Part shown: positions 4,655 to 40,766 of the stretch, in pieces | Layout of the letters: every line of letters begins with the position of its first letter | Numbering within the stretch: position 1 is the first letter of the stretch | Origin: Kagunavirus LF7074P3 | DNA: 40,766 nucleotides | Direction: 5' to 3' (one strand) | Sequence record: OZ035791.1 | Made by a program: the position numbers and the translations under genes | Notes under the pieces: generated by a model | Database searches by the model: none | Told to the model about the DNA's origin: nothing | Seen by the model: the letters and a program-made list of their open reading frames with translations, nothing else

Positions 4655-4681
4655 AGCGCCCCGCTTTAAGGCGGGGCTTTA
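4655..4681 (+). terminator. weak terminator / attenuator hairpin
   Basis: GCCCCGC-TTTAAG-GCGGGGC hairpin followed by only TTT; lies 20 nt before Rz start. Confidence 0.45.
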
Positions 4682-5088: not shown

Positions 5089-5197
5089 CGACGCGGACGA
5101 GGATTTAGCTATTGACGTCCAGAACGCAGAATGTGTACGGCAACTGAGACTTAAAGTGTTCATGTTGCAGGATTACGTGAGGAATATTCTGGAATAG
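4934..5197 (+). CDS. Rz1: Rz1-like outer-membrane lipoprotein spanin (o-spanin)
   Basis: 87-aa ORF (GTG start) beginning inside Rz and extending past its stop; signal peptide with lipobox LSAC, Pro-rich mature region SPAPSQTPIPSP. Confidence 0.8.
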   Translation: MKSLSTLKRLAAACALLTLSACSSSPAPSQTPIPSPDTTMMQPPCKLALPSNDADEDLAIDVQNAECVRQLRLKVFMLQDYVRNILE

Positions 5198-5226
5198 TTG
5201 CCTTGTATGTTGGAATAATTTATTCT
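5198..5226 (+). promoter_or_regulatory. candidate promoter for scaffold/capsid genes (TTGCCT-N17-TATTCT)
   Basis: Hexamers with 17-nt spacer; overlaps 19-bp repeat ATGTTGGAATAAtttATTC (5207-5225). Confidence 0.3.
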
Positions 5227-13000: not shown

Positions 13001-13030
13001 TTTAAACCCCTTCATTGTTGGTGTAAGTGA

Positions 13031-13059
13031 ATAGTACCCTATTATATTGGGGTGTGCAA
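13031..13059 (-). promoter_or_regulatory. sigma70-like promoter TTGCAC-N17-TACTAT driving the minus-strand island
   Basis: Minus-strand reading cTTGCACaccccaatATAATAGGGTACTATTCAC; 32/34 identical to promoter at 34757-34790. Confidence 0.6.
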
Positions 13060-25220: not shown

Positions 25221-25505
25221 TTAACTATAATAGCTCGCTATTAGGTCGTCAACCTGTTTAAACGAACCAACGACAAAAACATTCGCACCACGTTTACGCA
25301 TCCGCTCGTGCTCACGTAACTGGTGTGGGTCTGGCTTCGTGTTTTCGTCTTTCTTAACCTCGACGAACAAGACGATGCCGCCGGGTAGAATTACCAGCAG
25401 ATCGGGAGCGCCGGAGCGCCCCTCATAGGAAAGTTTACGAACGAGGCCGCCGATAGCCTCGAATCGCTCTTTTGCGTATTTCTGGATGCGCCCCTCTTTA
25501 GTCAT
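25221..25505 (-). CDS. VRR-NUC domain nuclease (PD-(D/E)XK)
   Basis: 94 aa; ...GAPDLLVILPGGIVLFVEVKK... matches PD..(D/E)xK core of VRR-NUC family. Confidence 0.65.
   Translation of the reverse strand: MTKEGRIQKYAKERFEAIGGLVRKLSYEGRSGAPDLLVILPGGIVLFVEVKKDENTKPDPHQLREHERMRKRGANVFVVGSFKQVDDLIASYYS
25224..25252 (-). promoter_or_regulatory. sigma70-like promoter TTGACG-N17-TATAGT (minus strand) with ATAG-N4-CTATTAG dyad in spacer
   Basis: Minus-strand gTTGACGacctaatagcgagctatTATAGTt; lies inside 3' end of VRR-NUC ORF. Confidence 0.6.
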
Positions 25506-28847: not shown

Positions 28848-28876
28848 ACTATAATAGCTAACTATTCAGGTGTCAA
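28848..28876 (-). promoter_or_regulatory. sigma70-like promoter TTGACA-N17-TATAGT (minus strand) with ATAG-N4-CTATTCA dyad
   Basis: Minus-strand gTTGACAcctgaatagttagctatTATAGT; 55 nt upstream of SSB-like gene start. Confidence 0.7.
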
Positions 28877-31138: not shown

Positions 31139-31168
31139 ACTATAATAGCGAACTATTCATGATGTCAA
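31139..31168 (-). promoter_or_regulatory. sigma70-like promoter TTGACA-N18-TATAGT (minus strand) with ATAG-N4-CTATTCA dyad
   Basis: Minus-strand aTTGACAtcatgaatagttcgctattATAGT. Confidence 0.65.
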
Positions 31169-31173
31169 TGGGC

Positions 31174-31204
31174 TTTTCTAAAATAATTAATATGGTACTA
31201 TTCA
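31174..31204 (+). promoter_or_regulatory. candidate rightward promoter/operator for cro-like gene
   Basis: ATAT-ggta-CTATTCA dyad (31190-31204) with TACTAT -10-like hexamer; -35 poorly defined. Confidence 0.3.
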
Positions 31205-34756: not shown

Positions 34757-34785
34757 TTGCACACCCCAACATAATAGGATACTAT
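34757..34785 (+). promoter_or_regulatory. sigma70-like promoter TTGCAC-N17-TACTAT with ATAG-N4-CTATTCA dyad
   Basis: cTTGCACaccccaacATAATAGGATACTATTCAC; near-identical copy on minus strand at 13027-13060. Confidence 0.65.
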
Positions 34786-34819
34786 TCACTTATCGGAACG
34801 AGACAGAGGAGTTGGGGTT

Positions 34820-36003: not shown

Positions 36004-36032
36004 TTGCACACTAAGATAGAATAGGCTACTAT
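36004..36032 (+). promoter_or_regulatory. sigma70-like promoter TTGCAC-N17-TACTAT with ATAG-N4-CTATTCA dyad
   Basis: aCTTGCACactaagatagAATAGGCTACTATTCA, 32 nt upstream of gene at 36064. Confidence 0.6.
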
Positions 36033-36063
36033 TCATTTACACAAACGAGAGGGGAGACAGAAT

Positions 36064-36816: not shown

Positions 36817-37020
36817 ATGGTACAGAGATATTTATTACAAGGCGGTTTAATTGGGCCGCACGACGCAGGTGATTGGGTTGGCTATGAAGATTACGCAAAA
36901 CTTGAGGCCGCCGTTATCGCCTTACTTATGGATATAAATCGACGCTACCCTGGAGAAGGGTTTAAGTGCCCGTTAATACTTAAACTCGCGGAGATTGTGG
37001 AACATGAGCCTGGCAACTGA
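36817..37020 (+). CDS. hypothetical small protein
   Basis: ATG 36817 with AGGAG upstream; 67 aa. Confidence 0.45.
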   Translation: MVQRYLLQGGLIGPHDAGDWVGYEDYAKLEAAVIALLMDINRRYPGEGFKCPLILKLAEIVEHEPGN

Positions 37021-37297
37021 CATCCTTAAACGCAGCGGCCTTGCGCCGCTGTCGCCGAGAGCGAATACACGAATACACAAGCGCCGCCGTAATGCACTGT
37101 ACCCCGAGATTCAGGCCAGGCGCAAAGCGGTCCGCGCCTGTGGATTCCAGAACGGGAAGGCCGTGAATCTCGGTGAGTTTAAAACGCAGGAACGTGCAGC
37201 TATCGCTAATCGGCTATTTAATTACTGGAAATCGCTGGGGTACGTGGATATTCCGACGAAACCACAGAGACGACAATACATCTGGCGGCATAAATAA
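37004..37297 (+). CDS. AP2-like DNA-binding domain protein (putative)
   Basis: ...GFQNGKAVNLGEFKTQERAAIANRLF... resembles AP2/ERF-type three-strand + helix DNA-binding domains found in phage proteins (recall-based). Confidence 0.4.
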   Translation: MSLATDILKRSGLAPLSPRANTRIHKRRRNALYPEIQARRKAVRACGFQNGKAVNLGEFKTQERAAIANRLFNYWKSLGYVDIPTKPQRRQYIWRHK

Positions 37298-38509: not shown

Positions 38510-38530
38510 TCTATTTTCTGCAATGACTAG

Positions 38531-38559
38531 TTGACTATTATCCTAGACCCTACTATATT
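38531..38559 (+). promoter_or_regulatory. sigma70-like promoter TTGACT-N17-TATATT
   Basis: Hexamers with 17-nt spacer, 34 nt upstream of ATG 38593. Confidence 0.55.
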
Positions 38560-39454: not shown

Positions 39455-39623
39455 ACCCGTAGTTATCGATGGCGTCCTGTGGAAACCATACTCGGTTAAC
39501 CACATCGACGCCGACGGGAAGAAGTTCAGCTTCTACATTTTTGCAATTAGCCGTGAGCACGCCGCTTGTGTGGTTGATGATATACGAGAAACAGCGTGGC
39601 TTGGTGATGAGATAGTGGGGTGA
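39438..39623 (+). CDS. hypothetical small protein
   Basis: ATG 39438 in frame with track ORF 39432..39623. Confidence 0.4.
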   Translation: MMKAPEPVVIDGVLWKPYSVNHIDADGKKFSFYIFAISREHAACVVDDIRETAWLGDEIVG

Positions 39624-39627
39624 GAGT

Positions 39628-39798
39628 ATGTTCAGTGACATCAACGCAGCAATCGAAGAAGCAATCTGGCGCAGATACAACGGCGAGCAACAACGGCACT
39701 TCTGCCTGGTGCAACGTGGAAACATGATTGCCGTAGTGCAGGACCGCGATAACAAATATCCGAATGCGATGTGGACAACGAGGAATTTTGTAGGATGA
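39628..39798 (+). CDS. hypothetical small protein (56 aa)
   Basis: Uninterrupted frame, coupled to next ORF by ATGA. Confidence 0.35.
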   Translation: MFSDINAAIEEAIWRRYNGEQQRHFCLVQRGNMIAVVQDRDNKYPNAMWTTRNFVG

Positions 39799-40031
39799 TT
39801 ACCAGCATTCCGAACCTGATTAAAGAATACGGCACGATGGCGGAGACATGCCGACAAACCGGCATCAACGAAATGACGATTGCCAAGTACCGCAACGACG
39901 TGAACTGCGAGCGCCACGTAATTTATAACAACCGTCTTATGACGCACGTTAAGACAAGCCCGGTGTTATTCACGCGCCGTGGTATCACTAAAACTGAGCA
40001 ACGTATTGCTAAAGAGGAGAGCGGAGAATGA
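39795..40031 (+). CDS. hypothetical protein with HTH-like segment
   Basis: 78 aa from ATG 39795; ...TCRQTGINEMTIAKYRN... Confidence 0.4.
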   Translation: MITSIPNLIKEYGTMAETCRQTGINEMTIAKYRNDVNCERHVIYNNRLMTHVKTSPVLFTRRGITKTEQRIAKEESGE

Positions 40032-40129
40032 GACTGCTAACCATTCCGAATGCCTGGGCTATTGCCGTAGCTAACGACCATTACGGCGGCGGTGGTAAAA
40101 GAGCACCACGACATGGCCTATACAACTGA
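40028..40129 (+). CDS. hypothetical small protein (33 aa)
   Basis: ATGA overlap with upstream ORF; followed by terminator. Confidence 0.25.
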   Translation: MRLLTIPNAWAIAVANDHYGGGGKRAPRHGLYN

Positions 40130-40133
40130 TACA

Positions 40134-40156
40134 AGCCCTCTACGGAGGGCTTTTCT
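40134..40156 (+). terminator. rho-independent terminator
   Basis: AGCCCTC-TACG-GAGGGCT hairpin + TTTT. Confidence 0.75.
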
Positions 40157-40185
40157 GTACATCCTGCCTAATCCCCTTATATAAT
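40156..40185 (+). promoter_or_regulatory. candidate late promoter (weak -35 TGTACA, consensus -10 TATAAT)
   Basis: TATAAT at 40180-40185; upstream of terS. Confidence 0.35.
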
Positions 40186-40191
40186 CCCTTT

Positions 40192-40235
40192 AGACGCGTA
40201 GGGCGCGTCTGATGCGCTCTGATGGTCAGACGCAT
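40192..40235. repeat. clustered inverted and direct repeats (AGACGCG/CGCGTCT; TCTGATG x2; AGACGC x2)
   Basis: AGACGCGtagggCGCGTCTGATGCGCTCTGATGGTCAGACGCAT, flanked by 9-bp inverted repeat AATCCCCTT (40170-40178) / AAGGGGATT (40240-40248). Confidence 0.8.
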
Positions 40236-40250
40236 ACGCAAGGGGATTCT

Positions 40251-40766
40251 ATGAAGCTGAAACTCAAGCAGCCATCGCCAGAGGTGGTGCAAGCTGCACA
40301 TGAAGAAGCTGTTAGCGCAAACCGTCGACGTAAACGACCGCGCGGTAAACAGAGCCTTTATCAATCGTCCCGTAATTCCGCCGCGTTGTGGGACCCGGAC
40401 TATTGCGACGAATTGATTCGTTTCTTCGACCGCACGTCATGGGAGTCTATGCCGACCGGTGCACACGGAGACTACAAAGCTGTCATTGCGGACAAGCCAC
40501 CGTCACTGGCCCGCTTTGCATTGCACATCGGCGTCACTATCCCGATTATTAAGTTGTGGCTGCGTGAGATTCCAGCTTTTGCAGAAGCATATGAAACAGC
40601 ACAGGCGCTGGAAGAGGCATACTTCACTGAGACGGGGGCCGCGGGTATCTCCGCTACGTTTGCTGCCGCGAAGCTGGGCCTCGGTAAAGAGAAACCAGTT
40701 GAATCTACAGAAGAAACAGCACCGACTGAGATTATTTTCAGTGTTGCAGAGCCTGTAGGTAAAATC
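40251..40766 (+). CDS. terS: terminase small subunit (putative), 3'-truncated by window end
   Basis: ATG 40251 with RBS AAGGGGA; frame open for 172 codons to the last base; basic N-terminus RRRKRPRGK; position immediately before terL if ends are joined. Confidence 0.6.
   Translation, partial: MKLKLKQPSPEVVQAAHEEAVSANRRRKRPRGKQSLYQSSRNSAALWDPDYCDELIRFFDRTSWESMPTGAHGDYKAVIADKPPSLARFALHIGVTIPIIKLWLREIPAFAEAYETAQALEEAYFTETGAAGISATFAAAKLGLGKEKPVESTEETAPTEIIFSVAEPVGKI

Follow-up and report, generated by a model that had tools for sequence, protein, structure and literature searches.

What is the dense cluster of repeats that lies immediately upstream of the terminase small subunit gene (terS) of Kagunavirus LF7074P3 (sequence record OZ035791.1)? 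A preliminary description, made from the letters alone, suggested a late-promoter activator site, a structured 5' leader, or a packaging recognition region bound by the small subunit, TerS. The window, i.e., the whole stretch of 40,766 bases that was analysed, is a complete, circularly permuted Kagunavirus (Guernseyvirinae) genome. Guernseyvirinae phages (Kagunavirus, Jerseyvirus and relatives) are among those isolated most frequently for use against E. coli and Salmonella in therapy and biocontrol, and they provide a small chassis for phage engineering. To our knowledge, their gene regulation is essentially unstudied. We find that the cluster contains two adjacent hairpins, HP1 and HP2, which form a conserved, so far undescribed RNA leader that is specific to Guernseyvirinae. 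This is probably the cis-acting 5' leader of the packaging-operon messenger RNA (mRNA), made from a host sigma-70 promoter with a terminator upstream.

Two hairpins within the repeat cluster

The repeat cluster is real and far denser than chance. Six 7-mer inverted-repeat seeds fall within 95 nt, compared to 0.21 in 2000 dinucleotide shuffles (P = 0.0005), and this count was reached by 0 of 1627 other windows of the genome. The RNA folding energy of the cluster, -35.1 kcal/mol, is low relative to shuffles (z = -3.5) and within the lowest 2% of genome windows. The element is present as a single copy per genome, and no further copies were found in the window.

All the features named in the preliminary description were found in the sequence. 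It did not mention a terminator hairpin that immediately precedes the cluster (40133-40152), and it misread the structure of the second hairpin. Its inner hairpin, AGACGCG-TAGGG-CGCGTCT (40192-40210), is confirmed and is conserved as HP1, which spans 40191-40211 on the plus strand. HP1 reads (U)AGACGCG-UAGGG-CGCGUCU(G), with a stem of 7-8 bp and a conserved YAGRG loop. HP2 occupies 40212-40235 on the plus strand and reads AUGCG[C]UCUGA-UGG-UCAGACGCAU (in DNA letters, ATGCG[C]TCTGA-TGG-TCAGACGCAT). It consists of two 5-bp helices split by a bulge and has a conserved UGG loop. RNAfold of 40192-40270 returned exactly HP1 and HP2, and RNAalifold of the alignment of relatives returned the same two hairpins.

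HP2 accounts for the second TCTGATG and for the second AGACGC copy (40228), which is its 3' arm. Both TCTGATG copies (40208 and 40218) are present, but their status as selected direct repeats is unsupported: the first is the HP1 3' arm plus linker and the second is the HP2 upper arm plus loop. We rejected a protein-binding array at these repeats: where the second copy has become TATGATG, its RNA partner has changed with it, and the first copy is unchanged. The pairing that had been proposed for the second AGACGC, an alternative hairpin GCGTCTGA/TCAGACGC formed with the HP1 3' arm, was also rejected (75.9% of cells paired, no covariation, broken in the Jersey and Cornell clades). The 9-bp inverted repeat AATCCCCTT (40170-40178) / AAGGGGATT (40240-40248) exists in the window but is unconserved outside Kagunavirus. 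Selection for the flanking repeat, for the TCTGATG repeats or for the 'second AGACGC' pairing is unsupported: each is either confined to some lineages or results from the hairpins.

We counted base pairs in a fixed-register alignment of 21 distinct cores (an earlier version had 16 sequences). This alignment, with NN padding, replaced a MAFFT alignment in which the Cornell-clade sequences had the 3' arm of HP2 out of register. The paired cells amount to 96.8%, compared to 89.2 +/- 0.9% in shuffles, and the covariation score is 0.266, compared to 0.137 in shuffles (0/500 shuffles reaching the observed value in each case). In slid controls, where partners were shifted by 1-3 columns, pairing was only 17-53%. 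The HP2 pair 40219-40229 is C-G in Kagunavirus, A-U in the Jersey and Cornell clades, and G-C in Pantoea phage, and the outermost HP1 pair, 40191-40211, occurs as five types (U·G, G-C, C-G, U-A and A-U). The HP1 pair 40198-40204 changes from G-C to U·G in Jerseyvirus and the HP2 pair 40216-40231 does so in PhiSTP2; at four other positions a Watson-Crick pair is replaced by G·U, in two cases throughout a clade. Variation is free in the bulge, the linker, the internal loop and a 2-nt insertion in HP2, and non-pairing changes are located at helix ends. The loops are nearly invariant (YAGGG, with CAGAG once, and UGG, with UGA once). The base pairs of both hairpins are kept by covariation beyond the controls, the pattern of a structured cis-acting RNA leader.

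Most of the stem changes are G·U wobbles: 41 cells are G·U, which pair only in the plus-strand transcript, and by our reading of the variants only about 4 cells are A·C. The G·U excess in the stems therefore points to RNA, as the other strand would carry A·C mismatches and a DNA duplex would have asymmetric half-sites. The covarying outermost pair 40191-40211 suggests that the RNA includes 40191.

Conservation across the Guernseyvirinae

Homologous regions were gathered from IMG/VR (50 loci via TerS and 25 via a DNA pattern), metagenomes (43 loci), one genome collection and GenBank phage records. They represent Kagunavirus, Jerseyvirus, two Cornellvirus/phiEap-2-like groups, Hafnia phage TS33 and Pantoea phage AH01. 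Every relative examined has the terminator, -35 and -10 hexamers separated by 17-18 bp, HP1, HP2, a strong Shine-Dalgarno sequence and a protein start that reads MK... HP1 begins 6-7 nt past the -10 hexamer; the distance to the retained AGACGCG is 6 nt in both Kagunavirus and AH01. The kept promoter spacing, this position of HP1 and the RNA-type covariation of both hairpins support the structured 5' leader, one of the three options first put forward; a late-promoter activator site gained no evidence on either side.

When the window is compared with Cornellvirus-like contigs, the DNA of the portal gene and of the gene for the terminase large subunit (TerL) is 66-73% identical, the terS DNA is unalignable and the TerS proteins are 28-30% identical. 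Positions 40178-40248 align at 77-84% with the Cornellvirus-like genomes, as an island amid these genes. The element thus stands out as a conserved island of non-coding DNA, and no other non-coding stretch in the compared regions is conserved as strongly. Another island, at 37001-37040, was set aside as merely a conserved gene start. About 470 of 50,697 phage records match a 151-base query spanning the element, and all the records examined are Guernseyvirinae. There was no match among 5,426 complete E. coli genomes, which were searched for host or prophage copies. A cmscan of 39500-40766 against Rfam 15 (E <= 10) gave only chance-level snoRNA/rsmX matches of at most 16 bits, none of them on 40191-40235 as a unit.

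Two observations concern individual relatives. An 18,987-bp contig from a Taishania pollutisoli assembly (Bacteroidota; NZ_JACVEL010000022.1, our locus L127) carries a Jerseyvirus-type terS and leader (60 bits); it is probably phage contamination of the assembly. In Jersey and Cornell phages, the HP2 upper arm (window 40218-40223; TCTGAT in Kagunavirus) reads TATGAT, which matches 5/6 of a -10 hexamer at about +27 to +32 of the predicted transcript and could cause a sigma-dependent promoter-proximal pause.

The probable packaging-operon leader and its alternatives

We consider it fairly probable that the region is the junction of two transcription units in a phage that we call virulent, and that HP1 and HP2 act as RNA, in cis. 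The upstream lysis/nin-like genes would end at the intrinsic terminator at 40133-40155, and a host sigma-70 promoter would start the packaging-operon transcript, covering terS, terL, the portal gene and perhaps genes beyond. This transcript would open with the two adjacent stem-loops about 3 nt or less from its 5' end, and the unpaired ribosome-binding site and TerS start codon would come after HP2. Most likely, the 5'-terminal structure would shield the mRNA from 5'-end-dependent decay and set TerS translation, while the invariant loops would probably contact a conserved host or phage factor. We thus infer mRNA stability or translation control as the most likely role of the leader.

The flanking signals are consistent with this arrangement. 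The terminator (40133-40155, plus strand) comprises AAGCCCTC-TACG-GAGGGCTT (40133-40152) followed by TTTT, and ends the upstream lysis/nin-like gene block; a 33-aa open reading frame (ORF; 40028-40129) has its stop codon 4 nt ahead of the hairpin. It combines a GC-rich stem and a U run at a gene end with compensated stem changes (T:A to G:C in Jerseyvirus, C:G to A:T in our locus L108), and its loops are freely variable. A simple terminator scan did not list it because the T-run rule was measured from the end of a longer stem. The sigma-70-type promoter (40156-40185, plus strand) has the -35 hexamer TGTACA (40156-40161), an 18-bp spacer and the -10 hexamer TATAAT (40180-40185), and scored 10/12 matches in a promoter scan. 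The TATAAT had already been noted, and the pair that it forms with TGTACA is kept across clades. The equivalents are TGTACA-18-TACAAT in Jersey phages, TTGCCT-17-TATAAT in Cornell-like phages, TTGCTA-17-TATAAT in Hafnia TS33 and TTGCCA-17-TATAAT in Pantoea AH01. Hexamers and 17-18 bp spacing are thus kept in five lineages with diverged spacer sequence, as is typical of a sigma-70 promoter, whose hexamers lie 16-18 bp apart. Transcripts from such promoters begin about 7 nt past the -10 hexamer, and we infer a start at about 40189-40192.

The ribosome-binding site AAGGGGA and the TerS start ATG (40251-40253) together occupy 40240-40253 on the plus strand, and six unpaired bases separate HP2 from AAGGGGA. 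The Shine-Dalgarno sequence is strong in all clades (GGGGA, GAGAGGA and CAGGAGA). The 9-bp flanking repeat is really two tandem AATCCCYTT copies (40170-40178 and 40183-40191, plus strand) that lie in the spacer, -10 and discriminator of the promoter, each complementary to the ribosome-binding site. The resulting duplex is above chance only in Kagunavirus (P ~0.01-0.1; Cornellvirus P ~0.8), and its arms vary without compensation within Kagunavirus. This complementarity may be a lineage-specific extra outside the core element.

Several points weigh against a cis-acting RNA leader. Folded by itself, the leader is only moderately more stable than its shuffles (z = -1.8). The alignment register was set by hand; a covariance model places TS33 and a Jersey-type sequence in the same register and, in AH01, skipped the outer HP1 arm. 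Three outer HP1 pairs are lost in AH01, and outer pairs are weakened in three other isolates. When independent events are counted, the strand asymmetry is modest, with roughly 9 G·U-creating and 4 A·C-creating changes. A plain stabiliser does not account for the invariant loops. The searchable literature contains no transcript ends, half-lives or reporter data for any Guernseyvirinae phage.

Could HP2 be conserved because it is translated? TerS might start at the (A/G)TG at 40212, with the AGGG of the HP1 loop, 8 nt upstream, as its Shine-Dalgarno sequence, and the conservation would then be that of a 13-15 residue extension or of a short upstream ORF. The codon is open and in frame in Kagunavirus, Jerseyvirus and most Cornellvirus sequences, the gaps between the two candidate starts are 39, 42 or 45 nt, and many GenBank records annotate terS from the upstream codon (Shemara, celemicas, Jersey UPWr_S1, KE06, SE126, Hrm2). 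However, this frame is lost in four lineages (TGA in the Cornell-type L054/L055, +1 nt in the phiEap-2-like L071/L093, 46 nt in Hafnia TS33, ATG-TAG in Pantoea AH01), and most Kagunaviruses have GTG at the codon. The fixed HP2 differences are non-synonymous yet pair-preserving (Ser/Tyr with Gln/His; Arg to Leu with Arg to Gly), and a four-fold degenerate site (GGT) is invariant. In the RNAfold structure, stems enclose both the upstream start codon and the bases flanking its Shine-Dalgarno sequence, and a separate strong Shine-Dalgarno sequence precedes ATG 40251 in every clade. Neither a frame open in all members nor a synonymous bias was found, and we regard a coding origin of the conservation as highly improbable; the comparative data favour ATG 40251 as the conserved TerS start. 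A packaging function is unlikely too, though less so. The element would be pac or part of it, with TerS binding duplex repeats and headful series beginning here, as at SPP1 pacL upstream of terS. The phage must have a pac site, a kind of site usually located within or close to terS, and this element is directly upstream of the gene, in one copy per genome, with TCTGATG twice, 10 bp apart. TerL carries Terminase_6N/6C domains and resembles the PBSX family, a type that is usual in headful packaging and compatible with it here. The phage most likely packages by a headful mechanism, and PhageTerm called Jerseyvirus K47 'P1-like headful'. Yet nothing speaks positively for TerS binding to this region. 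TerS has diverged in relatives where the element retains about 80% identity, and its putative helix-turn-helix recognition helix appears to differ at most positions; the site does not co-vary with the DNA-binding part of TerS. In Jerseyvirus and Cornellvirus, the direct repeat is lost through a substitution for which the RNA partner compensates, and wobble-type changes leave the DNA half-sites asymmetric. A conserved element, a diverged TerS, lost repeats and RNA-rule substitutions argue, though not conclusively, against TerS recognition as the source of constraint. The relatives analysed have no fixed termini and no submolar pac fragment: published analyses describe no obvious termini for fBC-Eco01, redundant random ends for Jerseyvirus SeF1, and for K47 the headful call, which gives no position and comes with no submolar fragment.

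HP1 and HP2 might also be palindromic DNA operators, bound at +1 to +44 by a dimeric phage or host regulator that switches the packaging promoter. In Kagunavirus, HP1 forms a perfect 7-5-7 palindrome that covers the predicted start site, and another palindromic operator-like motif (AATAGT-N3-CTATTAT) at other promoters of this phage indicates that regulated promoters exist in the genome. The element has no likeness to that motif, though, the half-sites are asymmetric in other clades (e.g., GAGGTGCG vs GAGACGCG) and always RNA-compatible, and double changes in HP2 keep pairing rather than half-site sequence. Such operators therefore seem very unlikely. Two further alternatives, each quite unlikely in our view, share the RNA with our reading and assign it another task. 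If transcripts read through from upstream, the flanking repeat (AAUCCCCUU or AAUCCCUUU) could pair with AAGGGGAUU to close a three-way junction that hides the TerS ribosome-binding site, and only transcripts from the local promoter would be translated. The fold of 40125-40270 closes exactly such a junction (-53.7 kcal/mol, z = -4.2), the flanking duplex in the window reaches -13.5 kcal/mol (P = 0.013), and Kagunavirus has two redundant anti-Shine-Dalgarno copies. Still, the arms mutate uncompensated inside Kagunavirus (AATCACCTT, AATCCACTT, AATCCATTT), the complementarity is at chance in Cornellvirus and weak in Jerseyvirus and phiEap-2, and the terminator upstream may make read-through rare. 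Finally, the leader could be a compact RNA acting on the host expression machinery, either as a put-like, protein-independent modifier of RNA polymerase that carries it past terminator-like hairpins of the operon, or as a 'standby' element for ribosome loading, through its buried (A/G)UG and its Shine-Dalgarno-like AGGG loop. Each of these roles would explain why the loops are invariant over phages of Escherichia, Salmonella, Enterobacter, Hafnia and Pantoea despite TerS divergence. We retain the cis-acting 5' leader of the packaging-operon mRNA as the best explanation.

The terS start is disputed in the records (L053, L134, L135, L137, L138 and L140 vs L133, L136, L139 and L001). About half of the sampled records begin terS 13-15 codons upstream, inside HP2, and SETP3-type genome records begin exactly at codon 40212. 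Several deposited genomes 'start' inside the element because the upstream ATG was annotated as the terS start. We rejected the idea that these record starts are physical DNA ends, as the start points differ (ATG-1, ribosome-binding site, HP1 loop; GenBank/IMG) and follow annotation conventions.

In the window, terS runs from 40251 to 40766 on the plus strand and through the window junction to its stop at 31-33, overlapping the TerL start at 30. The genome was opened inside terS, and the TerS ORF is split over 1-33 and 40251-40766 and missing from the ORF-tool list. TerS matches PHROG phrog_3064 'terminase' (E = 6.5e-70). One paper groups TerL with HK97-type cos terminases, a grouping that the Pfam domains found for TerL do not suggest. 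In the region tested, the window shares 99.5% identity with Kagunavirus LF7074P1; with phages K1G and K1H the identity is about 90%. Terminator-like hairpins are located within the late operon at 2796-2811 and 4658-4677. The first, AGCCCCGAAAGGGGCT followed by TTCTTAT, is directly 3' of the portal gene with a copy of the palindromic motif right after it (region 2796-2831), and phiEap-2 also has a similar hairpin after its portal gene (L078:8989-9016). The portal-end hairpin and the adjoining motif suggest that terS-terL-portal may form a separate short transcription unit of their own.

The palindromic motif AATAGT-N3-CTATTAT occurs 11 times in the window genome, against 0.6 expected, with sites at 2816-2831, 5193-5208, 13030-13045, 25227-25244, 28851-28866, 31142-31157, 31187-31202, 34771-34786, 36018-36033 and 38526-38541. 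At 25227, 28851 and 31142 (minus strand) it takes up the spacer and the -10 hexamer in promoters of near-consensus sequence, TTGACA-17-TATAGT, and a second motif class, GTGAATAGTANCCTATTAT-NTTGGGGTGTGCAAG, is found at 13030, 34771 and 36018. The motif looks like an operator common to many promoters. A published Kagunavirus paper named it 'phage RNA polymerase promoter'; no such phage RNA polymerase is evident, and the TerS promoter lacks the palindromic motif.

Our analysis defines the promoter and leader of the packaging operon and adds a conserved RNA motif that is outside Rfam. It also resolves an annotation inconsistency, as many records begin terS 13-15 codons too early, inside a hairpin. 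If the loops contact a host factor, the element would give engineers of these phages a means to control the expression of late genes. If the leader is only a stabiliser, the element would be ordinary, as the other parts (terminator, promoter, ribosome-binding site) are anyway.

Comparison with known systems

The pac sites of P22 and Sf6 lie inside terS, and SPP1 pacL, with its repeated boxes, is recognised in duplex form. The Kagunavirus element resembles these sites and the SPP1 pacL-pacC-pacR system in being near terS in a most likely headful phage. It differs in that its repeats are not maintained, its substitutions follow RNA rules, and the element is kept while TerS has diverged. More distant TerS homologues with 31-36% identity (L128:930-1040 and L129) have a different leader; their contigs were binned as Candidatus Saccharibacteria, a doubtful binning for phage-like contigs. 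They share the order of terminator, TATAAT promoter, short structured leader and terS. However, they have a single GC hairpin and then UUUUUU directly ahead of the Shine-Dalgarno sequence, an attenuator-like arrangement without HP1/HP2 sequence or model similarity. The covariance model scored 14.7 and 11.3 bits on these two loci, both on the terminator.

The put RNAs of HK022 (putL and putR) are factor-independent antiterminators, and putL comes directly after a sigma-70 promoter, is structured from +3, folds into two stem-loops and works in cis, on the RNA polymerase that is transcribing it (PMC9378689). The put RNAs suppress terminators by way of the zinc-binding domain of the polymerase beta' subunit. 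The Kagunavirus leader likewise has two stem-loops encoded just downstream of a promoter, in an operon with internal terminator-like hairpins at 2796-2811 and 4658-4677. putL begins AGACG...GGCGCGUCU...AUGCG, as does the Kagunavirus leader. At the DNA level, putL (L132:8240-8311, minus strand) and the leader share TAGACG, GGCGCGTCT and ATGCG in order, from the transcript 5' end. These common blocks lie where putL and putR differ and are probably a coincidence. put is about 72 nt long, whereas the Kagunavirus element is 44-47 nt and lacks counterparts to the triple-helix strand and to stem II. The covariance model run on HK022 putL and putR gave no match, and the alignment similarity was not significant (P = 0.17 for the window leader vs putL; at least 0.57 for every leader vs putR). 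We therefore rejected membership in the HK022 put family: the similarity is not significant, the model finds no match and the shared blocks fall outside what putL and putR have in common. We also rejected a pseudoknot of the put type (40201-40205 with 40215-40219), as it is contradicted by which partner compensates, and covariation backs HP1/HP2. A put-like mode of action would be an analogy only, slightly attractive given the terminator-like hairpins of the late region.

The other comparison is with the 5'-terminal stabilising stem-loops of enterobacterial mRNAs, of the type reportedly described in the ompA 5' untranslated region by Emory, Bouvet and Belasco in 1992. The likeness lies in a hairpin at or near the predicted 5' end, a second hairpin and a single-stranded ribosome-binding site, all in cis and with no dedicated gene. 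An ompA-type hairpin is within about 2-4 nt of the 5' end, which holds here only if the predicted start is right. Such stabilisers extend the half-life of the mRNA in a manner that depends on RNase E/RppH. In the ompA type the hairpin sequence is largely irrelevant, whereas here both loops are nearly invariant over phages of five host genera. By analogy, the ompA-type 5' hairpin appears to be the closest functional counterpart of this leader, with invariant loops that would exceed the needs of that role.

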